64,000 bases of DNA, from contig JAGWUP010000009.1 of NCBI GenBank assembly GCA_028868375.1, forward strand, positions 32,538 to 96,537, in the 5' to 3' direction. Positions within the stretch are counted from its first letter, which is position 1. The number at the start of each line of letters is the position of its first letter. Position numbers and translations under genes: made by a program. Shown here in pieces: positions 24,418-61,898 of this stretch. A model generated the notes under the pieces. It saw only the letters and a list, made by a program, of their open reading frames with translations. It was not told the origin of the DNA and searched no databases. The stretch is from Elusimicrobiota bacterium. GTDB taxonomy: Bacteria > Elusimicrobiota > Elusimicrobia > UBA1565 > UBA9628.

Positions 24418-24456
24418 AGTCTCCTCACTCGATGGATGATGTTGTTCTGCGCACAC

Positions 24457-46675: not shown

Positions 46676-47301
46676 GATTTTTTCTCCTTGTCGGAATGCG
46701 CCTTCTCCAGAACCAGATGAAACCGGATGACGACCCGGTCCGCTGTCTTGATCGCGCCGAAGGCCAAGCGCGGCGGCCGCACGCCGAAATCGGTCATGAG
46801 CAGAGGCTGTTGACCGTCGATGATGATGCGACCCTCTTTAAAGGAAAGCGCGGCCTCGATTCGCTCCGGCCGCGTCCGGCCCGCCACGGACAGCTCGCCG
46901 TAGGCCGTTACCGTCGCCGCACCGCTCTCAAGCCGCCCGGCGACGCTGTAGCGATCCATCGCGAACACGATCTCCGGAAAGCGCTCAGCCTTGAGCGCCC
47001 GGGCCATGTTTTTATCGAGCAAGCGATGCGGCGAGCGCAGGGCGGCGACCGGGATGCTCAGCGTCAGGCGCGCGGGAAGCTCGGAGACGACGGCAGAGGA
47101 CAACGATTCCAGGGAAGAAGCGCTCGAAAAGACCAGCTCTAAATCGCTGAAGGTCGCCTGGCTCTCGTAGGCGTGCAGGGTGGACTCCCCCTCCAGCCAA
47201 ATCTTGCTGCCCTCCGCCAGCCCGGCTTGAAAGGCGGCCTGAGCCGCCGGAACCAGGATGATGGCCAAAGAAACGATAACGAATTGGATTATCTTTTTCA
47301 T
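46672..47301 (-). CDS. YceI-family periplasmic protein
   Basis: Signal peptide, YceI-like length and motifs. ATGA overlap with the porin gene. Confidence 0.65.
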   Translation of the reverse strand: MKKIIQFVIVSLAIILVPAAQAAFQAGLAEGSKIWLEGESTLHAYESQATFSDLELVFSSASSLESLSSAVVSELPARLTLSIPVAALRSPHRLLDKNMARALKAERFPEIVFAMDRYSVAGRLESGAATVTAYGELSVAGRTRPERIEAALSFKEGRIIIDGQQPLLMTDFGVRPPRLAFGAIKTADRVVIRFHLVLEKAHSDKEKKS

Positions 47302-47328
47302 CTTATTTTAATCTGGCTAATTTGATTA

Positions 47329-47344
47329 ATGCAACAAAATAGCC
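47329..47344 (-). promoter_or_regulatory. sigma-54 (-24/-12) promoter TGGCTattttgTTGCA upstream of yceI-porin operon
   Basis: Perfect GG-N10-GC spacing in an AT-rich intergenic region, about 28 nt upstream of the yceI ATG. Confidence 0.55.
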
Positions 47345-47380
47345 AAAACAATAAGACGACTTACTTTCGCTAGCCTTGAA

Positions 47381-48337
47381 TCAGCGCCCGAGGCTGGAGA
47401 GGTAGCGGGCCAGGTCCTCGATCTGCAGATCGGTCAACTGGCCGCGGAAGGCAGGCATGCCGGACTTGGGATTGGTCTTGGCGGGATCTTCGATGTAGCG
47501 GACGATGAAGGACTTGTCTCGCGCCGAGCCGATCGTGGAGAGATCGGGACCGACCTCCCCTCCCTGGCCGCGGATCTTATGGCAGACGGCGCAGTTCTCG
47601 GCGAAAAGCTTCGGCGCCTCCTGGGTGAAGGGCTCGTTGGCGATCGACTTAAGGTAGGCCGTCAGGGCCTTGATCTCGTCGTCCAGCAGGCCCAGGCGCG
47701 GCATCGCGGAATGGGGCGTGACGGCGCTGGGATCGCGGAAATGCCGCTCCAGCCACTCGGGCGACTCGGCGCCGACGACCCGGTCGAGCTGGGGCCCGAC
47801 GACGCCGCCCTTGCCGCGAATCTTGTGGCAGTAGGCGCAGTTAAGCTGCCGGTAGAGGCGCGCGCCCTCCACGACCTCGGGGTTTTTCTCGACGACCGGG
47901 TTGACCAAGGGGCTGCGGTAGCCCTCCACCGTCAGGGCCGTGACGCCGGCGATCGCCAAGACCCCCAAGCCGGTCAAAAACGGGCGATCCAGGGGATGGC
48001 GCTTGTGGCCTCGGTCGAACAAGGGCAGGAAAAACAAGGCCGCGAAGACGGCTCCCGGCAGCACCACGGCGGCCACCGACTCCAAGCTGCCGGGGAAGGC
48101 CTTCAAAGCCTGGAACAGAAAGAGGAAATACCATTCCGGCCTCGGGTTGTAGGAGGTGTCGGTGGGGTCGGCCAAGCTCTCCAGATGGGCCCCCAACTTC
48201 CAGGCCAGGAAGGCCAGCAGCCCGAAGAGGAGGAAGGCCACGAGGCAATCCTTGAAGACCGCGTACGGAAAGAAGGACTTGCCCTTCTGCTTGAGCTCCT
48301 TATAGCGGCGCTCGTAGTCCTGATGCCAATCAGCCAA
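47381..48337 (-). CDS. cytochrome bc complex subunit: cytochrome b C-terminal (subunit IV-like) domain fused to diheme cytochrome c
   Basis: N-terminal 3-TM PetD-like segment (FPYAVFKDCLVAFLLFG), then two CxxCH motifs (CAYCH, CAVCH). Confidence 0.8.
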   Translation of the reverse strand: MADWHQDYERRYKELKQKGKSFFPYAVFKDCLVAFLLFGLLAFLAWKLGAHLESLADPTDTSYNPRPEWYFLFLFQALKAFPGSLESVAAVVLPGAVFAALFFLPLFDRGHKRHPLDRPFLTGLGVLAIAGVTALTVEGYRSPLVNPVVEKNPEVVEGARLYRQLNCAYCHKIRGKGGVVGPQLDRVVGAESPEWLERHFRDPSAVTPHSAMPRLGLLDDEIKALTAYLKSIANEPFTQEAPKLFAENCAVCHKIRGQGGEVGPDLSTIGSARDKSFIVRYIEDPAKTNPKSGMPAFRGQLTDLQIEDLARYLSSLGR

Positions 48338-49037
48338 GAGGGTTTCCCTCCCCGCGCCGCCGGGCGCGCTCCGGAGGCTCGGAGATGCCGTGCCAGACCA
48401 CCAGGAAGAGGTGGATGCCGATGAGGAGGAGGACGACGGCCGGCAGCACCAGCACGTGCAGGGCGTAGAAACGGGTCAAAGTCGAGGCCCCCATCTCGCC
48501 GCCGCCCTTGAGGATCTTGGAGACGAGGGGACCCACAAAAGGAGTCTGCCCGGCGATGTTGGTGCCCACCATCGTGGCCCAATACGCCTTCTGGTCCCAC
48601 GGCAAGAGGTAGCCGGTGAAGCCGAAGCCGATGACGACGAGCAGCAGGACGACGCCGACCATCCAGGTGCCCTCGCGCGGGTATTTGTAGGCGCCCATGA
48701 AGTAGACGCGCAGCATGTGCAGCACGACCAGCACGACCATGAAGCTGGCGCCGAAATGATGGAGGCCGTGGATGAAGGAGCCGCAGAGGACCTTCTCGTT
48801 GATGAAGCGCACGGAATCGTAGGCGTGGTCCGGCGAGGGCACGTAGTTCATCGCCAGCAGCGCCCCGGTGACGGCCTGGACCACGAAGATGAAGAGTGTG
48901 GCGCTGCCCAAAGTGTAGAGCCAGGCCGTCGGTCCCTCGGCCTCCGGGATGTGGCGGGCGAAGAGGGTCTCCCAGACCCGGTCGCAGCCCGTGCGCCGGC
49001 GCAGCCACTCCCCGACGGCGCGGCAGCGGCGCTTCAC
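48330..49037 (-). CDS. cytochrome b6-type (N-terminal four-helix) subunit of a cytochrome bc complex
   Basis: Four TM helices with conserved heme-ligand His pairs (FIHGLHHFGASFM and YALHVLVLP). ATGA overlap with the Rieske gene. Confidence 0.85.
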   Translation of the reverse strand: MKRRCRAVGEWLRRRTGCDRVWETLFARHIPEAEGPTAWLYTLGSATLFIFVVQAVTGALLAMNYVPSPDHAYDSVRFINEKVLCGSFIHGLHHFGASFMVVLVVLHMLRVYFMGAYKYPREGTWMVGVVLLLVVIGFGFTGYLLPWDQKAYWATMVGTNIAGQTPFVGPLVSKILKGGGEMGASTLTRFYALHVLVLPAVVLLLIGIHLFLVVWHGISEPPERARRRGEGNPLG

Positions 49038-49564
49038 GCGGCCCCCTTCTCGTCAACCGGGCGTATGAGCAGGCGGCCGGAGACGACCTTGACCGGGAAG
49101 CGGTCCAGCGGCCGCGGCGGAGGCCCGGAGAGCACCTTCCCCTCCCGGTCGAAGACCCCCGCGTGGCAGGGGCAGAGAAACTCCTGCTTGCCCTGGTCCC
49201 AGCGGTAGGGGCAGCCCAAATGCGTGCAGCGCGGATCGAAGGCGATGAAGCGCCCCCCTCCGAGATTCGACAGCCAGACCGAGGACCTCTTCTCGGTGAC
49301 GACCCAGGCGTCCCGCTTGCGGGCCACGTAGTCCACCTTGACCGGAGCGCCGGTCCTCAGCTCGGAGGCCCTGCCGACGTCGATCCAATTCTCATCCTCC
49401 TTCTCGAAGGCGGGAGAGACGAAATAAGACAGGCCGGCGGCTCCGAGGACCGAGGCGATCGTCCCCGCGAGGAGGGCCGCCGCGCCGGCCAAGAAGCCTC
49501 GGCGCGTGACCCCCTGCTCCTCCGCCTCCGATTCGCAGGGGCAGCGGCCCAGGCCCGTCGTCAT
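49034..49564 (-). CDS. Rieske [2Fe-2S] iron-sulfur protein, Tat-exported
   Basis: Tat signal TRRGFLAGAAALLAG and Rieske boxes CTHLGC and CPCHAG. Confidence 0.9.
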   Translation of the reverse strand: MTTGLGRCPCESEAEEQGVTRRGFLAGAAALLAGTIASVLGAAGLSYFVSPAFEKEDENWIDVGRASELRTGAPVKVDYVARKRDAWVVTEKRSSVWLSNLGGGRFIAFDPRCTHLGCPYRWDQGKQEFLCPCHAGVFDREGKVLSGPPPRPLDRFPVKVVSGRLLIRPVDEKGAA

Positions 49565-49565
49565 C

Positions 49566-49943
49566 CTACTCGACGTCCTTCTTGACGGCCTTCCGGGATT
49601 CCGTCTTGGCGCCGAACGCCCTCAAATAGGCCACGACGTCCGCTATCTCCGCATCCTTGAGCTTTCCCTTGAACGCCGGCATGGTCTTCCTGCCCGCCTC
49701 GTTGCTCACACCCTCGGAAACGGCCGAGGCGAGCTTCTCATCGGAGAGTCCCTGAATCCTTGCCGAGCCCAGGTTGAGGTCCTCCAGCTTGGCCTTGAAC
49801 AGCCTGGCGATCCCCGGATTGCCCTTGCCGTCCTTGGCATGGCATGCGGAGCATTTGGCGAGGAACAGATTCCGACCTTCCGTCTTGGAGGCGGGAGCGG
49901 CGGCAGCGCAGACGGCCAACAACAGGATGACGATTGATTTCAT
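49566..49943 (-). CDS. monoheme class I cytochrome c (c6/c553-like)
   Basis: Signal peptide, CSACH and a Met ligand region KTMPAF. Confidence 0.8.
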   Translation of the reverse strand: MKSIVILLLAVCAAAAPASKTEGRNLFLAKCSACHAKDGKGNPGIARLFKAKLEDLNLGSARIQGLSDEKLASAVSEGVSNEAGRKTMPAFKGKLKDAEIADVVAYLRAFGAKTESRKAVKKDVE

Positions 49944-49976
49944 TGCTTCTCCTTTAAGTCTAGCAAGTCTCGAATC

Positions 49977-51020
49977 TCAGGCCACCGCCTCTCGCGGCCG
50001 AGCGAAAGCGGCCGCCTTGTCTAGCTCCAGGGCGCAGCGGGAGGCCGCCTCCGAGACCAAGCTCTCGGCCGCGGCCTTGTCCTTCGCCTTGGCCTCGACG
50101 CTGCGGGCCACGACCTGCTTGAGGTCGTCCAGATCGTAGAGATACGCCCCGCTGACCGCAGCGCAGCCGGGATCGACGTTCCTGGGCATGCCCAGGTCGA
50201 TCAAGAAAAGCGGCCGCCTCCGGCGCGCGACGATGCCGCGCAGCATTTCGGCCTGCAGCAGCGCCGCCGGGCTGGCGGTGGAGAAGACGCCGACCTCGGC
50301 GCGGGCCAAAAGCTCCAGCCCCTCCGCAAACGTCATCGGCCGCCCCCCGATCCTGCGCGCCAGCTCCTCCGCCCGCTCCGGCGTCCGGTTGGCCACGCTG
50401 ATGTCCTTGAAATTCTTGACGGCCAAATGACGCGCCACGGCCTCCGCCGCCTCCCCCGCCCCGAAGACGACGATGGAGCCGTCGTCGCGCGAGCCGAAAA
50501 TCTGCCGCGCCAGCGCGGCCGCTGCCCCCCCGATCGAGGACACCCCGTTCTGGATGCCGGTGCGCGCGCGCGCCGACTTGCCGGCGGCCAGGGCGCTTTG
50601 AAAGCACCGGTTAAGCCAAGGCCCCGTCATTTTAGCCGCGCGAGCCGCCTCGTAGGCCCGCTTGACCTGCCCCAGCACCTCGGATTCGCCGATGATCCAG
50701 GAATCCAAGCCGGCGGCCACCCGGAAGAGATGCCCCAGCGCGGCATTGCCGAGCAGGCTGCCCAGGCTGCCCTCAAGCCCGGGTCCGCCGCGCCGCAAGA
50801 ACCATGCTCTCGCCCGACCGGCGGCTTGCCCGGCGCGCGGCGCAACTCCGTAGATCTCAAGCCGGCTGCAGGTCGACAGCAACACCAGCTCCGAAACCCC
50901 CAGCTCGCGGGCCAGCCCGGGCAATTGCGCCGCCACTTCAACCTCCGGCACGGAGGCCCGCTCCCGCTCCTTTAAGGGCGCCGACAAGTGGCTGAAGCCG
51001 ACCTTGAAGAGCTCGCTCAT
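49977..51020 (-). CDS. hemA: glutamyl-tRNA reductase
   Basis: Conserved catalytic LSTCSRLE (Cys), NADPH-binding VFGAGEAAE, and typical HemA order of domains. Confidence 0.85.
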   Translation of the reverse strand: MSELFKVGFSHLSAPLKERERASVPEVEVAAQLPGLARELGVSELVLLSTCSRLEIYGVAPRAGQAAGRARAWFLRRGGPGLEGSLGSLLGNAALGHLFRVAAGLDSWIIGESEVLGQVKRAYEAARAAKMTGPWLNRCFQSALAAGKSARARTGIQNGVSSIGGAAAALARQIFGSRDDGSIVVFGAGEAAEAVARHLAVKNFKDISVANRTPERAEELARRIGGRPMTFAEGLELLARAEVGVFSTASPAALLQAEMLRGIVARRRRPLFLIDLGMPRNVDPGCAAVSGAYLYDLDDLKQVVARSVEAKAKDKAAAESLVSEAASRCALELDKAAAFARPREAVA

Positions 51021-51069
51021 GTTCGGATTGTTCTTCGATTAAGCAACCAAGCAACGCTACGGCCAAATC

Positions 51070-51085
51070 TCTAAAAAGCGAGGGA
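51070..51085 (-). promoter_or_regulatory. sigma-54 (-24/-12) promoter TGGCCgtagcgTTGCT upstream of the hemA-bc complex operon
   Basis: Perfect spacing, about 50 nt upstream of the hemA ATG. Confidence 0.5.
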
Positions 51086-51112
51086 GAGCGCCGCGGCGCC
51101 CCCCTCGTCGGA

Positions 51113-53080
51113 TCAGAACTTCGCCGACAACGACAGCTCGCTGACGCCTATGCGGCCGTTCTGCGAGCCGTCCAGCTTATCGACCCACTGCTCCTCGTCG
51201 TAGGAGGCCCGGGCGCTGAGGTTCTTGTAGAGCTCGCGCGCCAGGGACACCGTCCAGTGCGTGATCCGGACCTCGGTGGGAGCCAGGTCCGAGAGATGGA
51301 CGCCGACGGAGGCCCCCGTGAAGTAGGGGTCGAAGGCCGTCACGAACCAGTGCGCGTTGGAGATCGTATACGACAGATTCGCGCGCGCCGTCAACTTCAG
51401 GGGCAAGCATGCCATGCCGTTGGCCGAGATGACATGGTTTTCGTAGTCGTAGCTGGAATCCGGGATGTGGATCAGGTTGACGACGTTGTTGCCGTTAAAC
51501 GCGACGTTGCTGGCTCCGAAGTAGGCGTCGATGGTGTCTTTGCCTCGCTCGTAGGCGTAGCCGCCTCCCAGGGAGGCCTTGCCGTCCTGGCGGGACCACT
51601 GCAGGTCGAAGAGCACCCGGTTGAGCCGCTGCTTGAAGTTGTTCGGCGAGCGGTCGCTGTCCTCGCCGATGCCGTCCCAGTTGGCGTTGAAGGCCAGCGT
51701 CTCCGCCAGGGGAACGTAGATCGCGACGGTCTCGTAGTGGCCGAGGGTCGGCGAGTTCTCGTAGGCGGCGCGGTTCGCGGTCAGGAAACGATAGCCCGCC
51801 GAGAGGCTGGCCCCGGCCGGCAGGTCGAAATCCGCCATCAACTCGACCTGATGCTTGGTGTCCTTCGTCTGCGGTCCGTAGAACTGCGTCTCGGCCGGCT
51901 GGAAGGTGCCGTCCTGGTAGAGGGCGTCGTCGCCGTAATCGCCCGGCCTCTGGTCGGCGTTGCGCCGATAATTGTACTCCGGCTTGTAGCCCAGGGAGAG
52001 GGCCACGTGCTCTATGCCGGTGTAGCGCGCCTTGACGTCGGCCCGCATCTGGTAGAAGTCGATGCGCGGGTCCGGCGGGCTGGCGTTGTCGAAGGCCGCG
52101 AAGCTGTTGTTGACCGCGGTGTTCATCACGTGGTCGTAGAGCCGCGCGGAGATCGAGAAGTCCTTGGCCGGCAAATACAGCGTCCCGAGGTTGCTGTCGA
52201 CGACTTTCACCTTGTAGCCGTTGGTCTCTCCGACTCGCTCGCGGTAATCCACACCGCCGGCCGCGTTGATGTCGGCCGTCAGCGGGAAGTGGAAGGCCGC
52301 CTGGTGTATGTCCGTGCGCTGCTCGGAGACCCAGCTTAAGTCGGCGGTCGGATAGCCGCTGAAGGTGCCCGCGATCTTCGAGTCCACTGAGCTCGGGGCC
52401 TTGTCCGCGAACTTGCGCGCCGTGTAGGTGTAGCTGACCTCGCCCTTGCCGACATCCGCCTGGGCGCCCACCGTCACGTCCCTGGTGAAGCGGTCGATCT
52501 GCTGGGAGGTCACGTCCTCCTTGGTCGCCCCGGTCGTGCCGTCATAGCCCAGGGGCTGGGTGCCCTTCTCCGTTTCCTGCCAGTAGCCGGCCAGCAGGCG
52601 CAGGGCCGGCATGCGCGGGCAGGACAGCCACAGGTCGGCGTTCTCCTCGGTCCTTTTGAAGAGAAGGTCCTCGCCGCCGTAGTCGACCTTGGTCTGCGTA
52701 TTAGGAGTCCACTGGCCGTCCTGGATGATGCCGTTGGTGACGATGGGTTGGCGATGGGTCAGGATGCCGAAGCTGGAGTCCAGGCCCAGATAGCCGCCGA
52801 CGTTGAGGTCAAGACGCCCGCTCTCGTTGGAGCTGCCGACGTCGTTGATCCCCAGGTCCAACAAGGCGTTGCCGAAGTCGGACTTCACCCAAGCGCTGCC
52901 CTCCAGCGGATTGTACAGGTTTCCGTCATACTCGCGGACGTTGCCCTGGAATCCCCTGCGATCCGCCGAGAAGAACTTAGCCTCGGCCCCCGCCGAGCCC
53001 TCCGCCGCACGCAGCGGCCAGGCCAACGCGAGCAGCATCCCTCCCAATCCGGCGGCTACCGCCGCCTTGATGAACCTCAT
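51113..53080 (-). CDS. MtrB/PioB/MtoB-family outer membrane beta-barrel protein (porin partner of a decaheme cytochrome), putative
   Basis: GAAGGAGG RBS, signal peptide MRFIKAAVAAGLGGMLLALAWPLRA, about 630 aa of Asp/Gly/Tyr-rich alternating strands, and a terminal Phe (SLSAKF). Lies 55 nt downstream of the decaheme gene. Confidence 0.55.
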   Translation of the reverse strand: MRFIKAAVAAGLGGMLLALAWPLRAAEGSAGAEAKFFSADRRGFQGNVREYDGNLYNPLEGSAWVKSDFGNALLDLGINDVGSSNESGRLDLNVGGYLGLDSSFGILTHRQPIVTNGIIQDGQWTPNTQTKVDYGGEDLLFKRTEENADLWLSCPRMPALRLLAGYWQETEKGTQPLGYDGTTGATKEDVTSQQIDRFTRDVTVGAQADVGKGEVSYTYTARKFADKAPSSVDSKIAGTFSGYPTADLSWVSEQRTDIHQAAFHFPLTADINAAGGVDYRERVGETNGYKVKVVDSNLGTLYLPAKDFSISARLYDHVMNTAVNNSFAAFDNASPPDPRIDFYQMRADVKARYTGIEHVALSLGYKPEYNYRRNADQRPGDYGDDALYQDGTFQPAETQFYGPQTKDTKHQVELMADFDLPAGASLSAGYRFLTANRAAYENSPTLGHYETVAIYVPLAETLAFNANWDGIGEDSDRSPNNFKQRLNRVLFDLQWSRQDGKASLGGGYAYERGKDTIDAYFGASNVAFNGNNVVNLIHIPDSSYDYENHVISANGMACLPLKLTARANLSYTISNAHWFVTAFDPYFTGASVGVHLSDLAPTEVRITHWTVSLARELYKNLSARASYDEEQWVDKLDGSQNGRIGVSELSLSAKF

Positions 53081-53135
53081 GGCTTGCCTCCTTCTGTCGC
53101 TTCGTCCATACGCCTTGAGCGTTTCCATGGCGGCC

Positions 53136-54077
53136 TCAATGCGGAATGAACCGCATATGGCGGTCCGAGCCGTGGATCTCGCGGTGGCAGTTGACGCAGC
53201 GGCCGCGCTGCAGCAACAGGGCGCTGCTGGTGTATGCGTTGGCGTTATTAACGGTGCCGGTGTGCGGGAACTTGTGGCACTGCAGGCACAAGAACGGCAG
53301 CGCCTGCTTGAGCATGCGGTCGTTGATGCTGCCGTGCGGATCGTGGCAGTTGAGGCAGTTCTCGGTGACCGGCGGATGCTCGTAGGCGAACGGCCCCAGC
53401 TTCTCGGCGTGGCACTTGCCGCAGAGCTCCGGCACGCTGCCGGCCCGGATATTGCCGGACTCGCCCCCGTGCGGGTTGTGGCAGCTGGCACAGCTCATCT
53501 TGCCCTCCATCACGGGATGATGGGAGGGAAGGTTCATGCCCAGCTTCTTGGTCTTGTGGCACTTAAGGCAGGTCTCCGTCTCCGCCAGATACTCGTTGGA
53601 ATTCTCGACCTTCAGGTTGCGCGGGCCGTGGCCCTGATGGACGCTGTGGCAGGTCAGGCAGGAGAGGCCGTTGGCCGCATGCGGGCCGATGTTCCAATAC
53701 ATGACCTCCTGCTGCTTGTGGCAGTTGAGGCAGAACTTGCTCTGCTCGGCCGGCGGCAGCTTCAGGGGATCGATGATGGTGGCAAACCCCGGATTGCTCC
53801 TGTCTCCCGCGGCGGCCGCATGCAGGGAGCCGGGGCCGTGGCAGGTCTCGCAGCTCTTCTCGAAGTCGATGCCCTTGACCACCGGCAGGCGCTTTCCGTG
53901 CATCGACTGCTTGAACTGCTCCGCCTTGTCGGAATGGCAGGCGATGCAAGTCGAGGCGCCGACGTACGTCGGCTCGTCTACGGCGCGCGCCGCGCCGGCC
54001 AGGCAGAAGGCGAGCGCTCCCGCAAGCGCAGCCGTCCCCAGCCCCCTCATCCCCTCTCGGCCCGTCCTTGATCTCAT
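53136..54077 (-). CDS. periplasmic decaheme c-type cytochrome, MtrA/DmsE/PioA/MtoA family
   Basis: AAGGAG RBS, signal peptide and ten CxxCH motifs in 313 aa (CIACH, CETCH, CLNCH, CLTCH, CLKCH, CASCH, CGKCH, CLNCH, CLQCH, CVNCH). Confidence 0.8.
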   Translation of the reverse strand: MRSRTGREGMRGLGTAALAGALAFCLAGAARAVDEPTYVGASTCIACHSDKAEQFKQSMHGKRLPVVKGIDFEKSCETCHGPGSLHAAAAGDRSNPGFATIIDPLKLPPAEQSKFCLNCHKQQEVMYWNIGPHAANGLSCLTCHSVHQGHGPRNLKVENSNEYLAETETCLKCHKTKKLGMNLPSHHPVMEGKMSCASCHNPHGGESGNIRAGSVPELCGKCHAEKLGPFAYEHPPVTENCLNCHDPHGSINDRMLKQALPFLCLQCHKFPHTGTVNNANAYTSSALLLQRGRCVNCHREIHGSDRHMRFIPH

Positions 54078-54883
54078 CGCGCTTCTCCTTGCCAGGGATA
54101 TCGCCGCTGGCCTTTCCCGTCTTTTAAATTCTGCCCGTTGTCGGGATCGCGCCGCGATGACCGAAGTGCCGCGCGGTCTTGATAAAAGTCATCCGCGGCC
54201 GCGGGCAGGCAGGCCGCGGCGCGCAGCCGCCGTTGGTCGAGCACGCGGGCGACGCGCCCCTCGAGGGCGAGGATCCCGCCGCGCTCCAGTTGCGCCAGGG
54301 CGCGGCAGACGACCTCGGGAGCGGTCCCCAGGCGCTTGGCCAGCTGCTGGCGCGAGGCTCCCAGATCGGCCAGGCGCGAGCCGGGGGCGCGCTCCAATTC
54401 GCGGGCGATCAGCCTGGCCAAGCGCTCGCGCAGCGGGCGCAGGCCGAGCTCGGCGCAAAGATCCTGGACCTGCCCCAAGCGCTCGGCCAGACGGCGGGCC
54501 AGGGCGCGCACCAAGGCCGGCTCCCCCTCCCAGAGGCGGCGGAAGCGGGAGGCGTCGAGAAAGCAGATGCGCGAGTCCTCGGCGGCCTCGGCCGTGGCCT
54601 CGTAGGGCCGTCCCGCGATCAAGGCCCGCTCGCCCAAAACATCAGGCCCCGAGGCGAAGCGCACGATCTGCTGGCGGCCGCTGCCGGCGCTCTGCGACAA
54701 GGCGACTCGTCCGGAGCAGACGAAGTAGAGGCCCTGCGGCTCGTTGCCTTGGTAGAAGAGGATATCTCCGCGGCGGTAATCGTTGCCGCGCCAGCCCTGG
54801 CACAGCCTGTCCGCTGCCGTCCGCGGCAGGGCCAGCGAGGCGGGCCAGCGCAACAGGCCGCAGCGCCCGCGCATGCCCCTCAT
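54074..54883 (-). CDS. Crp/Fnr-family transcriptional regulator
   Basis: cNMP-binding beta-roll (DILFYQGNEPQGLYFVCSGRVAL), a C-terminal HTH (RQQLAKRLGTAPEVVCRAL) and an ATGA-type overlap with the decaheme gene. Start approximate (ORF extends to 55078). Confidence 0.75.
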   Translation of the reverse strand: MRGMRGRCGLLRWPASLALPRTAADRLCQGWRGNDYRRGDILFYQGNEPQGLYFVCSGRVALSQSAGSGRQQIVRFASGPDVLGERALIAGRPYEATAEAAEDSRICFLDASRFRRLWEGEPALVRALARRLAERLGQVQDLCAELGLRPLRERLARLIARELERAPGSRLADLGASRQQLAKRLGTAPEVVCRALAQLERGGILALEGRVARVLDQRRLRAAACLPAAADDFYQDRAALRSSRRDPDNGQNLKDGKGQRRYPWQGEAR

Positions 54884-54979
54884 CCCGCAGGGACCACGAT
54901 CGCATTCATGCCAGCTTCGCGCCATTGAACGGCGCGAAGCAACACAATGGCCCGGCAGATTCGTTGCTTTTAACCGATC

Positions 54980-55624
54980 ATGGCCGCGCGCGGCGAGCTC
55001 GCCTACCTTTATAAGGGGCGTCTCTACCTCAACCTGACCAATCGCTGCCCCACCGCCTGCCGCTTCTGCGCCAAGCACGCCTGGGACTGGAATTATCGGG
55101 GCTCACGGCTGCTGCTTGGGCGCGAGCCGACGGTCGGCGAGCTGCTGGACGCGGCGCGCTGCAGGCTGCCCGACGCCCCGTCGCGGGAAATTATTTTTTG
55201 CGGCTTCGGCGAGCCCACGGAGCGCCTGGCGACCTTGCTCGACCTCTCGGAGGCCCTGCGCAGCGGCCAGCCCGGCCTGTCGCTGCGCCTCAACACCGTG
55301 GGCCTGGGCACCCTCTCCAACCGCCGCGACATCGTCCCGGAGCTGGCGGCGGTCCTCGACTCGGTCTCGGTCAGCCTCAACACGGCCGACGCCGCTCAAT
55401 GGCGCTTCCTGCACCGCCCGCGCGCCAATCTCGCCGCGGCCGGGTTTTGCGCCGTCTGCGACTTCATCCGCGGCTGCGTCCAAGCGAAGCTGGAGACGAC
55501 GGTCACGGCCGTCGAGCAGCCCGGCGTCGACTTGGCGGCCGTGGCGGCGCTCTCCCGCCGCTTGGGGGCCGGCTTCCGCCTGCGCCCGCAGCTCGTCGAT
55601 CGCCCTCAGCGGGCCGGCTCGTAG
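54980..55624 (+). CDS. small radical SAM protein
   Basis: CxxxCxxC motif NRCPTACRFC near the N-terminus, 214 aa. Confidence 0.6.
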   Translation: MAARGELAYLYKGRLYLNLTNRCPTACRFCAKHAWDWNYRGSRLLLGREPTVGELLDAARCRLPDAPSREIIFCGFGEPTERLATLLDLSEALRSGQPGLSLRLNTVGLGTLSNRRDIVPELAAVLDSVSVSLNTADAAQWRFLHRPRANLAAAGFCAVCDFIRGCVQAKLETTVTAVEQPGVDLAAVAALSRRLGAGFRLRPQLVDRPQRAGS

Positions 55625-56667
55625 AGGCAGCCCGGATCGGAGGCCAGGTAATCGCCCGTCATCGCGTGGGCGCGGGCGCGGGAGCCGGAGCAGACGACGC
55701 GGAACTCGCAGGCGCCGCATTTGCCCTTGAGCCGAGAGGGATCGCGCAGGGCCAAGAAAAGATCGGAGTCGCGGTAGACCTTCGCGATGGAGTCCGTGCG
55801 CACGTTGCCGGCCGCCAGCGGCAAGAAGCCGGAGGGGCAGATGTCGCCGCGGTAATCCACGAAAGCGAAGCCCTTGCCGGCGTTGACGGCCACCTTGGTG
55901 GCCGTCGCCCCTCCTCTAATGCCGGGGCCCTTGGCCGCGCCGGCCGCAAGCCCGCCATGCTGAGCCAAGTACCTGCGGTAATGCTGCCCCTCGGTCAGCT
56001 TGACGACGAAGCCGGCCCCCGCTTCAAGCTGGCGCAAGCGCTCGAAGGCGTCCTCGAACTCTTGGGGCGAGAGCCCGCCCAGCTCCACTCCGCGTCCGAC
56101 CGGAATCAGGAAGAAGACCTCCCAGAACACCACGCCCAGGCGGCAGACCAGCTCGATCATCGCCTCGAGGGCGTGGGCGTTGGAGCGAGAGAAGCAGGTG
56201 TTGATCTGCAGGGGCAGCCCCAGCTCACGCGCCCAGCCCGCCGCCTCCAGGGTGCGCTCGAAGGCTCCCGGCACCCCGCGCAGGCTGTCGTGCAGCGCCG
56301 CGTCCGGGCCGTCGAGGCTCAGGGCCAGCTGATCGAGGCCCAGATCGCGCAGGCCCTCCAGCCGGCGGCGCGTCAAATTCGGCGTGGCCGCCGGGATCGT
56401 GCCCATGCGCAGGCCTCGCTCCTTGCCGCGCGCCACCAAAACCTCCAGGTCGGGGCGATTGAAGGGGTCTCCACCGGAGAGGATCATGATCGGGGTGCCC
56501 ATCCCGGCCACCGCGTCGATGAGCCCGCGGCCCTCCTCGCTCGTCAACTCCTGCGGCGAGCGCCCCAGCTCGGCTGAGGCGCGGCAATGTCGGCAGGCCA
56601 GGGCGCAGGAGCGAGTCGTCTCCCAGATGACCAAGAGCGGCGCGACGCCGAAATCAGGCGCCTTCAT
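55606..56667 (-). CDS. radical SAM/SPASM-domain protein (NirJ/AhbC/AhbD/PqqE-like)
   Basis: N-terminal LLVIWETTRSCALACRHC (CxxxCxxC) and a C-terminal SPASM Cys cluster (CPSGF, CGACEFRVVCSGSRARAH). Confidence 0.75.
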   Translation of the reverse strand: MKAPDFGVAPLLVIWETTRSCALACRHCRASAELGRSPQELTSEEGRGLIDAVAGMGTPIMILSGGDPFNRPDLEVLVARGKERGLRMGTIPAATPNLTRRRLEGLRDLGLDQLALSLDGPDAALHDSLRGVPGAFERTLEAAGWARELGLPLQINTCFSRSNAHALEAMIELVCRLGVVFWEVFFLIPVGRGVELGGLSPQEFEDAFERLRQLEAGAGFVVKLTEGQHYRRYLAQHGGLAAGAAKGPGIRGGATATKVAVNAGKGFAFVDYRGDICPSGFLPLAAGNVRTDSIAKVYRDSDLFLALRDPSRLKGKCGACEFRVVCSGSRARAHAMTGDYLASDPGCLYEPAR

Positions 56668-57046
56668 GGCCCAGATTCGCCACGAGCGACCGGAGGATGT
56701 CCATCGCCGAGACGATGCCGACCAGCCGCCCCCCGCGCGTGACCAGCAGGCGGTGGATGCGGCGCTCGAGCATCACGCGCGCCACCTCCTCCGTGGGCGT
56801 GTCCTCCTCGCAGCAAACCGGCTTGTTGGTCATCACCGAGGCCACCGAGGCGCCGGCGGCCGGGCCGCCCTGCCCCTGGAAACGCGTCAGGTCGGTCTGG
56901 GAGACCACGCCCAACAGCCTCCCTTCCGCGTCGACGACCGGAGCGCCGCTGATGCGGCTCTCGCTCAGCAGCCGCGCCGCCTCCGAGATATCGGCATCGG
57001 GCGGCAGCGTGATCAGCTCGCGGCTCATGATGTCCTTGGCGTTCAT
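56654..57046 (-). CDS. CBS domain pair protein
   Basis: MNAKDIMSRELITL start and two CBS repeats (ARLLSESRISGAPVVD, ARVMLERRIHRLLVT). Confidence 0.7.
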   Translation of the reverse strand: MNAKDIMSRELITLPPDADISEAARLLSESRISGAPVVDAEGRLLGVVSQTDLTRFQGQGGPAAGASVASVMTNKPVCCEEDTPTEEVARVMLERRIHRLLVTRGGRLVGIVSAMDILRSLVANLGHEGA

Positions 57047-57110
57047 GAAGGATTCGCCCTTATCTTGCAACAGGTCTGCCATCGGCCGGGTTGTTGCTGC
57101 GGTTTTCATC

Positions 57111-57917
57111 ATGATGATCCACGTTCCCCCTCGACGGCTGCTGGTCGCCTATGATTTTTCGCGGCGCGCCGCCTTGGCCTGGCGCGCCGCCCTGGCCTTG
57201 GGGCGGCTGTGGGGCTGCGGGGTGGAGGCCCTGCACGTCGTCGATCCGATGGAATCTCCCGGACGCGCCCCGCTGACTCTCGCGCCATCGAGGCGCGGCC
57301 TGCTGCGCCGCCGCCTGGAACAAGCCATCCCGGGCGCTTCCTCCTATTTCATCGCCCTGGGCGACCCTGCCTTCTGCATCCTCGAGCACGCCCGCTGGCG
57401 CCGCCCGGACTTGATCGTGCTGCCCTACGAGGGCAGGCGCGGCGTCGCTCGGCTGCTGAAAGCCTCGGTCGCCGAGATCGTCGCCGGGCAGGCCTGCGCC
57501 CCGGTCCTTGTCTTGAAAGGCTGCCCCCGACGAGTGCGCTCGGTCCTCTTTCCGATCCTCGCCGCGGACGCCGAGCATTCCGCGCTGCGCCAGGCGGCGG
57601 GGATCGCGGCGGCCCTATCGGCCCACATGACGGTGATGCGCGTGCGGCGCGCGCCTTGGCCGCGGCCAAGGGCGCTCTCGAAGCTGGAAAGCGTCCTGGA
57701 GACGCTGGACCCGGCCGTCCGAGCCGTCGTCAAGCCGGACATGCGACTGGCCGCCGGCAGCCCGGCGCGGCGCCTTGCCGAGGAGTCCGGGCGCCATGAC
57801 CTGCTCGTGCTGCCCCTGGCGCCTGGCCGCGCCGGCTCTCAAGCGCTGCGGCTCTCCGAAGCGCGCCGTCTCATGCGCCTCTCTCGGGCCGCGGTGCTTA
57901 CCTTGCCTTCTGAGTGA
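57111..57917 (+). CDS. universal stress protein (tandem UspA-like)
   Basis: Internal ATG start MMIHVPPRRLLVAYDFS and two USP-like halves (VLPYEGRRGVARLLKASVAEIV). Confidence 0.55.
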   Translation: MMIHVPPRRLLVAYDFSRRAALAWRAALALGRLWGCGVEALHVVDPMESPGRAPLTLAPSRRGLLRRRLEQAIPGASSYFIALGDPAFCILEHARWRRPDLIVLPYEGRRGVARLLKASVAEIVAGQACAPVLVLKGCPRRVRSVLFPILAADAEHSALRQAAGIAAALSAHMTVMRVRRAPWPRPRALSKLESVLETLDPAVRAVVKPDMRLAAGSPARRLAEESGRHDLLVLPLAPGRAGSQALRLSEARRLMRLSRAAVLTLPSE

Positions 57918-59244
57918 CCGCCACGCCGTAGGATTTAAGCTTGCGCCAGAGGGTGTTGCGCCCGACTCCGAGCCGCCGGGCCGCCTCGGTGGCGTTGCCG
58001 CCGCAGGCCTCAAAGACGGCGAGAATATGCTTGCGCTCCAGCTCCTCCAAGGTCTCGGCCGCGACGCCGCTCGGCCCCTGCAGCTCCGCCGGCAAATCCG
58101 GCAAGGACACCGCGGGACCGGAGGCCATGATCAGGGCCCGCTCGATGGCGTGCTCCAGCTCCCGGACGTTCCCCGGCCAAGAGTAGGCCGCAAGCGCCGA
58201 GGCCGCCTCCGGGGCCAGCCGCACGGCCGAGCCCCCCGTCTTCTTCTTGGCCTTGCGCAAGAAATGCTCGGCCAGCGGCAGGATGTCCTCCCGGCGCTGG
58301 CGCAGCGGCGGAATCTCGATGGGAAAGACCTTCAGCCGGTAGTAGAGATCTTCCCGGAATTTCCCCTCTTTGACGCGCTGGGCCAGGTCCTTGTTGGTGG
58401 CCGCGACCAGGCGGCCGGACACCTTGATGGGGTGGTTGTCGCCGACGCGCCGCACCTCCCCCTCCTGCAGCGCGCGCAGGAGCTTGACCTGCAGGGCCAA
58501 GCTCGTCTCGCTGATCTCGTCGAGAAACAGGGTCCCGCCGCTGGCCTCCTCGAAGAGCCCGCGCTTGTTGCGGTCCGCGCCCGTAAACGAGCCCTTGACG
58601 TGCCCGAAGAGCTCGCTCTCGAGCAGCCCCTCCGGCAGCGCGCCGCAGTTGATCGCCACGAAGGAGCCGCTGCGCCGGGGGCTGTTCTCGTGAATGGCGC
58701 GGGCGACGAGCTCCTTTCCGGTGCCGGACTCCCCGCAGACCAGCACCGTCGCCTCGGTGACGGCGACTTTCTTGACTAACTCCAGCACCCGGTGCATCTG
58801 GGGCGAGCCGTAGACGATGCCCTCGAAGCTGTACTTGCCCTTCACCTCCTCGCGCAGCCGGCGCACCTCTCCCAGCAGGCTTCTGCGCTCCAAAGCCTTG
58901 TGCAGCACCAGCGCCAACTGCTCGGTCTCGATCGGCTTGGTCAGGAAATCGAAGGCCCCCGCCTTCATCGCGGCCACGGCCGAGGAAATCGAGCCGTGCC
59001 CGGTGACCACGACGACCTCGGCGTCCGGCTGCTCGCGCTTGGAGGCGCGCAGCACCTCGAGGCCATCGCTGTCTGCCAAGCGCAGATCGGTCAGCACCAG
59101 CTCGTAGTTGTCTCGCGCCAGATGCGCGAGCGCCTCGGATGCCGATTTCGCTGCGGTCACCGCGTAGCCTCGCCCCTTGAGCTCGAAGGAGAGCAGGGTC
59201 TGCTGCGAGGGATCATCCTCCACCAGCAATATCTTGAGCGCCAT
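57898..59244 (-). CDS. sigma-54-dependent response regulator (NtrC family)
   Basis: [17 protein letters not shown]+ [14 protein letters not shown]-like [15 protein letters not shown] and a C-terminal Fis-type HTH. TGATG overlap with the kinase gene. Confidence 0.9.
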
Positions 59245-60695
59245 CAGTCCCCCGAGAAGCCGAGCTGGACCTGGAAACGGGTGCGCCCCGGCCGAGTCTC
59301 CACGAAGATCGCCCCGCCGTGAGCCTTGACGATGCGCTCCGCGATCGCCAGCCCCAGGCCGGTGCCCTGCTGCTTGGTCGTCTGGAAGGGCTTGAACATC
59401 GAGGCGCGCATCGCCTCCGGAATGCCGGGGCCGGTGTCCTCGACCTCGAAGAAGGCGCGCCCGCCGCTGCGCCCCGTGCGCACGCTGAGCTTCCCCCCGC
59501 CGGCCAAGGCCTGCAGGGCGTTGATCATCAGATTCCAGACCACCTGCCGGAGCTGGTCGGCGTCCATCGGGAAGGGCTTGAGCTCCTTCGACAGGGAGAG
59601 GACGATCTGCGTGGAGGCCTTGAGCTCGGCGTTGGACTCGATCATGCGCGCCGTCTCCTCGATCAAGCCGTTGAGATCGGAGCGCGCCAGCTTCAGCTCC
59701 CGCGGCCGGGCGAAGGAGAGGAAGTTGGTGAGCGCCTCGTTGAGCCGTTGGCTTTCGTGGCGCAGCACGCGCATGACGACGTCCCTGTCCTCCGCGTTGA
59801 GCTCGGAGCCGGAGGCCAGCTCCTTGGCCGCCATCACGATGGAGCTTAAGGGATTGCGTATCTCGTGGGCGACGACGGCGGCCATCTCGCCCAGGGAGGC
59901 CAGGGCCTCCGAGTCGGCCACGCGCGCCTGCAGCGCCAAGTGCTCGGTCATGTCGACCGCGTTCGAGATGTAGCCCACGATCTCTCCGGCCCCGTCGCGC
60001 ACGGCGGTGATGGTCAAGACCAGCGGTATCTCGCGCCCGTCCTTGGCCTTGTTGATCATCTCGCCGCGCCAGTGGCCCTTGGTGAGGATCGCTTCCCACA
60101 TCCTCTTATAGAGCTCGTCGCTGGAGTGGCGCGAGCGCAGGATGCGGGGAGTGCGGCCGACCGCCTCCTCCCGCGACCAGCCGTAATGGCGGCTGAAGGC
60201 CTCGTTGACGTCGAGGATCGTCCCGTTGCGGTCGCAGTAGAACATCACCTCGTTGGAGCGGCGGAAGGCCTCGTAAAGGGTCAGGGCCAGCCGGCGGTCG
60301 CGCGCCTGCTCGCCGATGTCGCGCGCGGTCACGAGGACGGCCCGCTCCGCTCCCAGCCGCACCAGCCTGCCCTTCTGCTCGACGGCCACCGGCCGTCCGA
60401 TCTTGTCGCGCAGGGTCGCCGGAAAATCCCCGGAGCCCGCCGCCAGCACGCGGCGGATCCAGGCCTTGTCCAAGGCCGCGTCCTTGGGGTCATAATAGAA
60501 TTCCGAGATCGAGCGGCCGAGAAGCTCCCCCTTGTCGTAGCCGGTCCCGCGCAGAGCCGCCGCGTTGACGTCGAGCACCGTCCCCTCGGGATCGCGCAGC
60601 CAGACCCAATCCGGCAACAGCTCGAAGATGTCGAGCTCGTGGACCACGTTCTGGCGACGGACCATGCGTCTATTAAATATAATTTTGCGTTCCAT
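59244..60695 (-). CDS. tandem-PAS sensor histidine kinase (soluble)
   Basis: Two PAS domains, H-box VAHEIRNPL and HATPase_c (DTGPGI, GTGLGL). Confidence 0.85.
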   Translation of the reverse strand: MERKIIFNRRMVRRQNVVHELDIFELLPDWVWLRDPEGTVLDVNAAALRGTGYDKGELLGRSISEFYYDPKDAALDKAWIRRVLAAGSGDFPATLRDKIGRPVAVEQKGRLVRLGAERAVLVTARDIGEQARDRRLALTLYEAFRRSNEVMFYCDRNGTILDVNEAFSRHYGWSREEAVGRTPRILRSRHSSDELYKRMWEAILTKGHWRGEMINKAKDGREIPLVLTITAVRDGAGEIVGYISNAVDMTEHLALQARVADSEALASLGEMAAVVAHEIRNPLSSIVMAAKELASGSELNAEDRDVVMRVLRHESQRLNEALTNFLSFARPRELKLARSDLNGLIEETARMIESNAELKASTQIVLSLSKELKPFPMDADQLRQVVWNLMINALQALAGGGKLSVRTGRSGGRAFFEVEDTGPGIPEAMRASMFKPFQTTKQQGTGLGLAIAERIVKAHGGAIFVETRPGRTRFQVQLGFSGD

Positions 60696-60726
60696 TTCGG
60701 ATCAAACGGCATAGCGAAAACGATTT

Positions 60727-60742
60727 TGGCCGTTTTATTGCA
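60727..60742 (+). promoter_or_regulatory. sigma-54 (-24/-12) promoter TGGCCgttttaTTGCA upstream of the rpoN-like gene
   Basis: Perfect spacing, about 30 nt upstream of the ATG at 60773, in the AT-rich divergent intergenic region. Confidence 0.55.
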
Positions 60743-60772
60743 ATACCATCATGGAACATTCCGGCCAATGAC

Positions 60773-61861
60773 ATGAACAAACAACGTTTGGACGCGCGCT
60801 TGCGCCAGGAGCAACGATTGGCTCTCTTCGGCCGGATGCGGATGGCCGAATGGATCGAGATGCCGGAGCGGGACTTCGCCCGGGAGATCGAGCGGCTGGA
60901 GAAGGACGAGCTCTTCCGAAGGCTCTATTTCGGCTCCGGGCAGCGCGCGGGAGCCATCCGGCGGCAGCGCTGGCCGCGGGCGCGCTTCGCCGGCATCGGC
61001 GAGCTCAACGAGCGGGTGACGGCCGGGGGCGGGGAGCGGGTCAAGGTGGAGGAGCGCCTCGAGGACCAAGGCGAGATCGCCGAGACCATCCGCAGGCTGG
61101 GGCGCGAGAACTTCGAGCGCTACTTCCTCTACGCCGAGGAAGCCCTGCCGCTCTCGGAGATCGCCAAGCGCACCGGGCTGGACGAGGCCGCGATCAAGGC
61201 GATCAACGATTTCTTGGTCGAGATCGGCGCCGAGTCGGAGTTCTCCTCGCTGCCGCGCGCCTCCGGAGGGGTGGGCTGCTATTGCGTGGCGCGCCTGACC
61301 GTCGTCGACGAGGAGCCGGTCTTCGAGTTCTTCTCCCCCCACTGGGCGCGCGGCCTCTACCAGATCCGCTACGACATCATCGAGCAGATGAAGGACACCA
61401 GCGAGCTGGTCGGCGGCGACGTCAAGCGCCTGCCCAATCTCCTCAAGCGCATCGAGACGATCAACCTGCGCCAGAGCACGATGTTCCGCGTGCTGGAGAC
61501 CCTCTCCAAGGTGCAGGTCGGCTATCTGAAAACCAGGCGAGACGATCTCAAGCGCCCGATCAGCCTGCGCATGCTGGCCAAGAGGCTGGACCTGGCCCCC
61601 AGCACCGTCAGCCGCGCCCTTTCGGAGCGCTCCGTGCGCCTGCCCTGGGACAAGGAGGCTCCCTTAATCGAGCTCTTGCCCGGCCGCCGCCGGCAACTGC
61701 GGCTGATCCTCAACCGCTGGCTGTCCGAGGACGCCAGCCCCACCGACGCGGCGCTGACCTCCCGCCTGAAGCAGGAATACGGCATCGCCGTGTCCCGGCG
61801 CACCGTCAACGCCGTCCGCCATGAATTGCGCCCCGGCGGGACGAGGCGCGCTTCCCCCTGA
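60773..61861 (+). CDS. RNA polymerase sigma-54 factor-like protein, compact (362 aa)
   Basis: C-terminal DNA-binding domain with HTH (ISLRMLAKRLDLAPSTVSRA) and RpoN box (GIAVSRRTVNAVRHEL). A region upstream of it resembles INQRQQT (INLRQSTMFRV). The N-terminus has an L/Q/R-rich region-I-like segment. Shorter than typical RpoN. Confidence 0.65.
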   Translation: MNKQRLDARLRQEQRLALFGRMRMAEWIEMPERDFAREIERLEKDELFRRLYFGSGQRAGAIRRQRWPRARFAGIGELNERVTAGGGERVKVEERLEDQGEIAETIRRLGRENFERYFLYAEEALPLSEIAKRTGLDEAAIKAINDFLVEIGAESEFSSLPRASGGVGCYCVARLTVVDEEPVFEFFSPHWARGLYQIRYDIIEQMKDTSELVGGDVKRLPNLLKRIETINLRQSTMFRVLETLSKVQVGYLKTRRDDLKRPISLRMLAKRLDLAPSTVSRALSERSVRLPWDKEAPLIELLPGRRRQLRLILNRWLSEDASPTDAALTSRLKQEYGIAVSRRTVNAVRHELRPGGTRRASP

Positions 61862-61898
61862 GCGATCGCTTGGCCGTGGCGTTGCAGAGTAGACGGAC

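Follow-up and report, generated by a model that had tools for sequence, protein, structure and literature searches.

Sigma-54-type promoter elements before respiratory operons and a compact sigma-54 homologue in an Elusimicrobiota genome

Here, we describe promoter-like elements of the sigma-54 (-24/-12) class in a 64,000-nucleotide stretch of an Elusimicrobiota bacterium (GenBank assembly GCA_028868375.1, contig JAGWUP010000009.1, positions 32,538 to 96,537 of the forward strand), hereafter called the window and numbered from its first letter. The elements precede genes for the iron oxidase Cyc2, alternative complex III, a Rieske/cytochrome b operon headed by hemA, and several neighbouring units, and the window also encodes two NtrC-type activators and a 362-aa protein homologous to sigma-54. 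Overall, the best explanation, which we consider probable, is that these are genuine sigma-54-class promoters of an activator-dependent energy-metabolism regulon, with the compact sigma-54 homologue as its most likely reader.

A spacer-specific motif upstream of respiratory operons

The window contains 13 exact copies of TGGC-N7-TTGC, compared with 3.04 +/- 1.8 in dinucleotide-preserving shuffles, none of which (0 of 100) reached 13. Within this motif the GG and GC dinucleotides lie exactly 10 nt apart, as in the core that defines the sigma-54 class. Nine of the 13 sites fall in the 7% of the window DNA without a called gene. When spacers from N3 to N12 were compared, enrichment was seen at N7 only (13 in total, nine in uncalled DNA), the other spacers (3-6 and 8-12 nt) yielding 1-6 matches overall, with 0-2 of them in uncalled DNA. 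On both strands of the 4.66 kb without a called gene, the Poisson expectation of the exact core is 0.185 versus 8-9 observed (P(>=8) = 3e-11), which agrees with the chance expectation of well below one put forward in a preliminary description of this DNA. Eight exact sites lie in non-coding DNA, 12-40 nt 5' of co-oriented start codons. A position weight matrix (PWM), built solely from sites of related genomes with no window site included, placed its top nine window matches exclusively in non-coding DNA and co-oriented with the next gene, and it also picked one-mismatch variants 5' of rSAM1, crp, usp and the operon of the histidine kinase HK2 and the bacterial enhancer-binding protein (bEBP) bEBP2. 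Genes were mapped by codon-position GC and Pfam. The elements are as follows.

24458-24472, minus strand: cyc2 promoter element TGGCAAAAATGTTGC, 40 nt 5' of cyc2 (23050-24417); top PWM match, 26.4
22350-22364, minus strand: actA promoter element TGGCAAGAGTGTTGC, 5' of actA and the alternative complex III operon (13111-22330)
47331-47345, minus strand: yceI-porin promoter element TGGCTATTTTGTTGC, exact motif, 29 nt 5' of the yceI start
51051-51065, minus strand: hemA promoter element TGGCCGTAGCGTTGC, exact motif, 30 nt 5' of the hemA start
57067-57081, minus strand: CBS promoter element TGGCAGACCTGTTGC, exact motif, 20 nt 5' of a CBS-pair gene
60727-60741, plus strand: promoter element of the sigma-54-like gene TGGCCGTTTTATTGC, exact motif, 31 nt 5' of the gene
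61871-61885, plus strand: ScdA_N promoter element TGGCCGTGGCGTTGC, exact motif, before a small ScdA_N/DUF1858 gene (61899 or 61923 to 62096)
54953-54967, plus strand: rSAM1 variant element CGGCAGATTCGTTGC, 12 nt 5' of the radical SAM gene rSAM1 (54980-55624); PWM score 17.1
54939-54953, minus strand: crp/fnr variant element GGGCCATTGTGTTGC, one mismatch; PWM score 12.6
57083-57097: usp variant element, one mismatch, found by the PWM
60753-60767, minus strand: opposite-strand element TGGCCGGAATGTTCC beyond the promoter of the sigma-54-like gene, consensus except for G to C at -13; PWM score 18.6
12784-12798, minus strand: weak candidate TGGCAGGCGCGTTGC, exact match 5' of a TPR-like gene; score 9.5 with the lineage PWM

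The preliminary description had claimed five such promoters, before cyc2, actA, yceI-porin, hemA-cytochrome bc and an rpoN-like gene. The latter three elements all exist in the sequence, are intergenic and lie on the coding strand; the five stand, and the count was too low, given the additional CBS, ScdA_N and TPR-like sites and the variants. Two of its positions needed small corrections at sites that are real, from 47329-47344 to 47331-47345 for yceI-porin and from 60727-60742 to 60727-60741 for the rpoN-like gene. Its hemA coordinate, 51070-51085, is 20 nt off and holds no motif: an intrinsic terminator (51104-51083) precedes the hemA promoter, and 51070-51085 is the T-tail of that terminator, the real site being 51051-51065. 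A recurring CTTTTTAGA 5' of hemA, considered as a regulator site, was rejected as this same T-tail, and by eye its copies at cyc2 and actA appear to be terminator T-tails too.

The description had further called the regulon window-wide. The regulon is retained, its spread is not: the sites cluster in the respiratory islands, one at 12-25 kb and the other at 47-62 kb, and no motif was found upstream of the ABC transporter, efflux pump, glycosyltransferase, cydA and znuA units of the window, which suggests that the motif marks a regulon and not a general promoter type. We rejected the idea that it is the housekeeping promoter of the phylum on the grounds that many units lack it and that the sites are confined to these islands. 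Sigma-70-like promoters were not enriched in the 44-64 kb region (2 versus 1.4 expected), and an Rfam scan of the window returned no RNA family, so that a reading of the motif as an RNA element is without support.

Conservation across related Elusimicrobiota

A HemA protein scan yielded 26 related Elusimicrobiota loci (416 kb; individual loci carry L numbers below), their HemA proteins being 45-61% identical. Over these 416 kb, the N7 motif has 83 matches, as against 7-38 for the other spacers. In at least 17 of the 26 loci, hemA is preceded at 40-80 nt by TGG[CT]-N7-[CT]TGC, and most of the others carry one-mismatch versions. The exact motif lies 5' of the sigma-54-like gene in eight of eight loci, the window counted, and TGGCCGnnnnATTGC is invariant in all eight intergenic regions 5' of the orthologues of this gene. 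Exact copies of the motif also precede rSAM2 (a second radical SAM gene) orthologues in 10 related loci, cyc2 in two (L001 and L006), yceI orthologues (L006, L007 and L014), crp (L001), the decahaem cytochrome gene (L009 and L021), the rSAM1 orthologue (L006) and, again in relatives, the cytochrome c orthologue. Beyond these, the relatives carry it 5' of more multihaem cytochromes, PFOR, an alginate-export porin, an HD-domain protein and a single-domain response regulator, and the same genes recur among the loci in shuffled order. The exact spacing, placement, orientation and conservation before orthologues in the 26 loci thus bear out the -24/-12 reading of the preliminary description.

Forty-nine sites share an extended lineage consensus, TGGCMGWWWYGTTGCT, which differs from the textbook consensus by G at -21 and YG at -17/-16. 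Written in short, the consensus here is TGGCMG...YGTTGCT, compared with the canonical TGGCACG...TTGCW (TGGCACG-N4-TTGCW, as reportedly given by Barrios et al. in 1999). In one subclade with divergent regions, the hemA and rSAM2 start codons come 12-15 nt after TTGC (L005, L008, L011, L012, L015-L019 and L023); as this is the distance from -12 to +1, the transcripts would be leaderless or nearly so. In L005, AAGGAGG lies inside the 12-nt gap between TTGC and the start codon, which is at odds with a leaderless reading.

That the motif is no promoter at all, but arose by chance from base composition, belongs to a dispersed repeat or is an operator bound by some unrelated transcription factor, is disfavoured to the point of being barely credible. 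Such a view could draw on the weakness of the 12784 site and on an exact site at 6295 that has no assigned gene. Against it stand the enrichment of a single spacer length, the constraint on strand and on distance to start codons, and the retention of the motif at orthologous positions although the proteins are only 50-60% identical between genomes. Moreover, the motif is identical to the core consensus of sigma-54, and genes for bEBPs and for a sigma-54 homologue accompany it. The flanks are not repeated between sites, and it is on this difference from site to site that a dispersed repeat or miniature inverted-repeat transposable element (MITE) was rejected as an identity for the motif.

The exact TGGC-N7-TTGC at 6295-6309 (minus strand) is located inside a 1.5-kb stretch, 5879-7352, in which no open reading frame with a coding-type GC pattern and no Pfam match was found. 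Near the weak 12784 promoter, between it and an ActF-like gene, sits a 292-bp element (12825-13116) whose 37-nt terminal inverted repeats are 95% complementary and which holds two more inverted repeats, nested ones; Rfam did not match it, and it could be MITE-like or a structured RNA.

The compact sigma-54 homologue and two NtrC-type activators

The regulatory genes of the window comprise the sigma-54-like gene and two kinase-activator pairs.

60773-61861, plus strand: compact sigma-54 homologue, 362 aa, annotated as a hypothetical protein
57898-60665, minus strand: HK2, a histidine kinase with two PAS domains (59244-60665), and bEBP2 (57898-59244), assigned by Pfam
24553-27287, minus strand: HK1, a PilS-like membrane histidine kinase, and bEBP1 (24553-25926), directly upstream of cyc2

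The 362-aa protein, an identical copy of which occurs on contig JAGWKZ010000010.1 of the Elusimicrobiota metagenome-assembled genome GCA_028865065.1, resembles region I at its N-terminus, lacks the acidic region II and carries a helix-turn-helix (HTH) and the RpoN-box variant GIAVSRRTVNAVRHEL (SRRTVNAVR). What the preliminary description had termed rpoN-like is a true sigma-54 homologue by several comparisons. Pfam recognises a partial Sigma54_DBD (E 3e-12). A family profile searched against PDB retrieved sigma-54 chains (E 3e-7) over the part comprising the extra-long helix, HTH and RpoN box (sigma-54 residues 317-465), with GIAVSRRTVNAVRHEL aligned opposite GIMVARRTVAKYRESL of PDB sigma-54. 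With an AlphaFold model of the protein (predicted local distance difference test, pLDDT, 86; predicted template modelling score, pTM, 0.84), the top 30 Foldseek hits were all sigma-54, at a best E of 3e-8. Against a canonical alignment of E. coli rpoN and six plasmid-borne rpoN genes, hhalign matched the close family in the C-terminal part only (E 1.2e-9), and a 132-sequence family alignment with 99.6% probability and E 2.5e-24 over 342 colinear columns, which pair family residues 1-361 with sigma-54 residues 2-474 and pass through the core-binding region. In this alignment region I and the PDV..LN..P..I..Y hairpin are in register, region II is absent, and a region I stretch ...EKDPLF lies opposite the canonical ...ESNPLLE; the N-terminal 50 residues are the best-conserved part of the family and appear to follow the region I pattern.

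The family comprises at least 223 homologues by word-seeded search and at least 258 clusters (50% identity) at E <= 1e-30 in the full library. Its members measure about 345-390 aa, and every named one belongs to Elusimicrobiota and is called hypothetical or a generic HTH protein. An NtrC-type bEBP gene lies next to the family gene in the lineage of the window and, among six distant Elusimicrobiota contexts, in four (L031, L041, L042 and L044), the remaining two being flagellar clusters beside fliA. This gene neighbourhood supports a functional partnership of the family with bEBPs.

Both activators claimed in the preliminary description are present as well. bEBP2 is of NtrC type, with a receiver, a sigma-54-interaction AAA+ domain (Sigma54_activat E 4e-71, GSFTGA) and HTH_8, and bEBP1 is likewise NtrC-type (Sigma54_activat E 1e-63). 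The HK2-bEBP2 pair is kept, divergent from the sigma-54-like gene, in L001, L004, L006, L009, L010, L014 and L044. The intergenic region between HK2 and the sigma-54-like gene contains four conserved blocks, namely a -10-like AT-rich box, a palindrome, the -24/-12 promoter and an inverted TGGCYGRAWYGTTCC element 11-12 nt beyond that promoter; in the window, a sigma-70-like promoter (60705-60676) precedes HK2. The palindrome, GTTCCA-N4-GGAAC, is not repeated at the other promoters. In the opposite-strand element at 60753-60767, GGAAC...GCCA is invariant in the eight-locus alignment, and this element may be the promoter of HK2-bEBP2 or an auto-repression site on the 5' untranslated region (UTR) of the sigma-54-like gene.

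At the cyc2 island, twin boxes stand next to the promoters: TTTGACGCGTTC at 24475-24486 (minus strand), 2 nt 5' of the cyc2 -24 element, and TTTGCCGCGTTC at 22367-22378 before actA. The TTTGnCGCGTTC box they share lies exactly 2 nt 5' of TGGC at both cyc2 and actA, these being its only two copies in the window, and an 8-mer, TTGGAATC, is common to the two promoter regions only. Because the shared boxes are found nowhere else in the window, they suggest common control of cyc2 and actA, perhaps through bEBP1.

Several results weigh against a sigma-54 regulon read by the compact homologue. Pfam detected neither Sigma54_AID nor Sigma54_CBD in the 362-aa protein, and NCBIfam TIGR02395 scored 51.5 bits against a cut-off of 277.35 and matched the C-terminal part only. 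The N-terminal half alone did not align significantly with sigma-54 in hhalign (E 0.003-0.04; region I alone, E 0.013-0.04), an N-terminal profile found no sigma-54 match in PDB, and the model of the N-terminal 212 residues (pLDDT 69.5) retrieved no sigma-54 in Foldseek, its best hits (E 0.34) being winged-helix regulators. On the activator side, the loop of bEBP1 reads GAYTDA instead of GAFTGA, which may weaken or alter its contact with sigma, and no palindromic enhancer (upstream activating sequence) was found that the 47-62 kb promoters, or all promoters together, have in common; inverted repeats near single promoters differ at each site. Finally, because hemA guided the choice of the related loci, the density of sites in them does not represent whole genomes. 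Since the N-terminal half is not significant on its own, we take homology with sigma-54 as shown, by sequence and profile comparison, for DNA binding, and region I function and binding of core RNA polymerase as plausible.

If only this DNA-binding module had been retained, the 362-aa protein could be a regulator that represses or competes at -24/-12-like sites, the conserved TGGC...TTCC site on its own 5' UTR being an example. This is improbable in our judgement. When parts of the protein are tested alone, only the C-terminal 150 residues are significantly sigma-54-like, the isolated N-terminal model weakly resembles winged-helix regulators, residues 83-147 give a weak signal resembling sigma-70 region 4, and inverted elements of -24/-12-like type, conserved among the loci, lie on either side of the transcription start region of the gene, all of which a repressor would accommodate. 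The full-length colinear alignment with its region I and hairpin, the conservation of the N-terminal 50 residues noted above and the constant bEBP neighbours argue for a sigma factor, bEBPs acting on sigma-54 and not on repressors.

A more substantial alternative, though still an unlikely one, is that a canonical RpoN encoded elsewhere in the genome reads the promoters and that the 362-aa protein is a specialised second paralogue serving part of the regulon, or an accessory factor, whose expression depends on RpoN. The sigma-54-like gene has its own -24/-12 promoter in all eight loci, and a sole sigma made only from its own type of promoter would face a bootstrapping problem, which favours this alternative; a rhizobial rpoN2 with a NifA-regulated promoter upstream offers a precedent (PMC3538637), and the N-terminal half of the 362-aa protein is very divergent. 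On the other hand, the number of clusters in the family, the restriction of its named members to one phylum and its varied genomic contexts are as expected of the phylum's own rpoN. In the low-GC relatives L031 and L033, no -24/-12 motif lies upstream of the sigma-54-like gene, and no canonical RpoN box was found in about 0.5 Mb of Elusimicrobiota sequence, a weak test. Elusimicrobium minutum was moreover reported by Francke et al. to be without sigma-54 and bEBPs (PMC3162934).

Taken together, we favour the activator-dependent regulon read by the compact homologue. A fuller version of it we advance tentatively, at somewhat less than even chances: the protein may be the Elusimicrobiota's own form of sigma-54, that is, their sole sigma-54, of about 360 aa, with no region II, a remodelled core-binding region, an altered RpoN box, a dedicated NtrC-type activator and the consensus TGGCMG-N3-YGTTGC. 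For the high-GC groundwater lineage, this would place under its control a self-amplifying regulon of iron oxidation, extracellular electron transfer, respiration and accessory haem synthesis, with some transcripts leaderless.

Further sigma-54-like sequences were seen in passing. L006 has, besides a full gene at 5233-6300, a second C-terminal RpoN-box fragment (…GIKVSRRTVNAVRNELRRRP*) at about 11646, 3' of hemA, which could be a duplicated or truncated copy. Hypothetical proteins on Paracoccus plasmids (NZ_CP058691.1, 139625-140563; NZ_CP035286.1, 516089-516502) are related to E. coli RpoN, with 25-30% identity to its C-terminal two thirds or its DNA-binding part, and divergent unannotated relatives of sigma-54 may therefore occur outside Elusimicrobiota too.

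Genes of the probable regulon, proposed mechanism and known systems

The 47-62 kb island is arranged in the order yceI/porin/kinase, hemA operon, 655-aa protein/decahaem cytochrome/crp, two radical SAM genes, CBS, Usp, HK2-bEBP2, sigma-54-like gene and ScdA_N, with these transcription units among them.

44047-47301, minus strand: yceI (46672-47301), O/P-type porin (45287-46675) and PAS histidine kinase (44047-45270), by Pfam
47381-51020, minus strand: hemA operon with a short hemA, cytochrome c, Rieske protein and split cytochrome b, by Pfam and synteny
minus strand, in this order: crp/fnr (54074-54874), decahaem cytochrome (53136-54077) and a 655-aa partner protein (51113-53080)

The 47331-47345 promoter is predicted to drive yceI and the O/P-type porin, and probably the PAS histidine kinase; L006 has the three genes in the same order as the window. 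An inverted repeat, TGGCTAATTTG / CAAAATAGCCA at 47314-47345, spans the -24 or -12 element of the yceI promoter and the predicted start region, and another, ATGTTGTTCTG / CACAGCAACAT at 24439-24464, spans the corresponding parts of the cyc2 promoter. Neither repeat is common to both promoters; they may be operator sites.

In the hemA operon, the N-terminal part of cytochrome b is encoded separately and its C-terminal part is fused to a dihaem cytochrome c. HemA (49977-51020) is a glutamyl-tRNA reductase of 347 aa (NCBIfam TIGR01035, 279 bits). This short form, in which no dimerisation domain was detected, heads cytochrome-rich operons throughout these Elusimicrobiota, and L004 (10001-10993 and 14683-15678) and L010 (3693-4682 and 8654-9643) each have two hemA copies, every one before a decahaem cytochrome gene. 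From this context, the short hemA appears to be an accessory gene that supplies haem in step with cytochrome expression. The window's decahaem cytochrome belongs to the GSU2203/DmsE family, and the only Pfam match of the 655-aa protein is a short, GSU2204-like stretch with CXXCH. Many relatives have the pair as well, some of them in two copies, and it may constitute an outer-membrane electron conduit.

The 57067-57081 promoter is predicted to drive the CBS gene and the radical SAM/SPASM gene rSAM2 (55606-57046), a member of the AhbD-like TIGR04053 family. The database call of the CBS gene begins at 57082, inside the promoter motif (ATG of ATGGCA); a start at ATG 57046 (MNAKDIMSRELITL...) fits the domain and keeps the promoter non-coding. 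A terminator (62190-62213) follows the ScdA_N gene. The other island, at 13-27 kb, comprises alternative complex III, cyc2 and the HK1-bEBP1 pair. Inside its alternative complex III operon, a 781-aa protein (14265-16610) has seven class-I cytochrome c domains and is also found in L001, L005, L011 and L018.

We propose the following mechanism. RNA polymerase holoenzyme at the -24/-12 sites would most likely carry the compact sigma-54 homologue and would stay closed until an NtrC-type AAA+ activator remodels it. The PAS kinase HK2 or, in the case of cyc2 and alternative complex III, the membrane kinase HK1 would sense a signal, probably of redox or oxygen type, and phosphorylate its NtrC-type partner, which would then open the closed complexes. 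From adjacency we infer that HK2 and bEBP2 are the likely activator pair for the 47-62 kb promoters, and HK1 and bEBP1 that for cyc2 and actA. The products would be the Cyc2 iron oxidase, alternative complex III, the Rieske/cytochrome b complex with its accessory hemA, the decahaem module with Crp/Fnr, YceI-porin, and the AhbD-like radical SAM, CBS, Usp and ScdA_N proteins. A basal supply could come from the sigma-70-like promoter before HK2. Given that the sigma homologue, and possibly HK2-bEBP2 too, has a -24/-12 promoter, the system is probably self-amplifying.

If the 362-aa protein works as a sigma factor, sigma-54 biology reaches Elusimicrobiota, whose only genome examined earlier reportedly had none, and structure-function work would gain a minimal sigma-54 from nature that lacks region II, has diverged strongly in the core-binding region and carries an altered RpoN box. 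For annotation, at least 258 clusters of sigma-54 homologues currently escape the curated models. For the environment, the motif and the PAS kinase/bEBP pair give a regulatory handle on the expression of Cyc2, alternative complex III and multihaem cytochromes in uncultured groundwater Elusimicrobiota. The finding also links an accessory hemA to cytochrome operons.

The preliminary description had considered sigma-54 control of haem synthesis and the bc complex unusual. For hemA, no precedent was found in the literature, nor any paper linking Elusimicrobia, cyc2 or hemA with sigma-54. For the bc complex there is precedent: in Geobacter sulfurreducens, cbcBA depends on BccR, a sigma-54-dependent response regulator, and a -24/-12 promoter has been mapped for it (bioRxiv 10.1101/2021.04.15.440034), so sigma-54 regulation of a bc-type respiratory complex is known, and our finding extends this pattern and does not overturn it. 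The wider RpoN regulon of Geobacter is the subject of PMC2725144.

As with BccR-CbcBA, an NtrC-type bEBP gene lies beside the -24/-12 promoter of an operon for a b/c-type cytochrome quinone oxidoreductase; CbcBA serves extracellular electron transfer with redox-tuned expression, and the comparison with the window is one of regulatory logic only. The phylum is another, and in place of CbcBA the window has Rieske/cytochrome b, alternative complex III, Cyc2 and a decahaem module, which are different families. Unlike Geobacter, the window also has an accessory hemA leading an operon, many neighbouring units with the same type of promoter, and the sigma gene within the island.

The 362-aa protein resembles canonical RpoN (of E. 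coli, or the 398-aa sigma-N of Aquifex aeolicus, PDB 5UI5) in its HTH and RpoN domain and in the promoter core GG-N10-GC. It differs in its length, the missing region II, an RpoN box of SRRTVNAVR versus ARRTVAKYR and a core-binding region too divergent for stand-alone detection, and it scores below every curated threshold. In Mesorhizobium loti and Rhizobium etli, the prxS-rpoN2 operon places an rpoN gene behind a NifA-dependent -24/-12 promoter (PMC3538637), and a sigma-54 gene under a sigma-54 promoter thus has precedent. There, as probably here, the gene sits within the island it helps express; unlike in the window, rhizobial rpoN2 is a canonical full-length paralogue beside a chromosomal rpoN1 and serves nitrogen fixation, whereas the regulon of the window is respiratory. 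The sigma-54 regulome of Desulfovibrio vulgaris Hildenborough (PMC4641369) is comparable at the level of the network, being a large one with many bEBPs in an anaerobe. Overall, the pattern is that of a Geobacter-type sigma-54/bEBP respiratory regulon, in another phylum, with a lineage-specific consensus and a compact, unannotated sigma-54 homologue.

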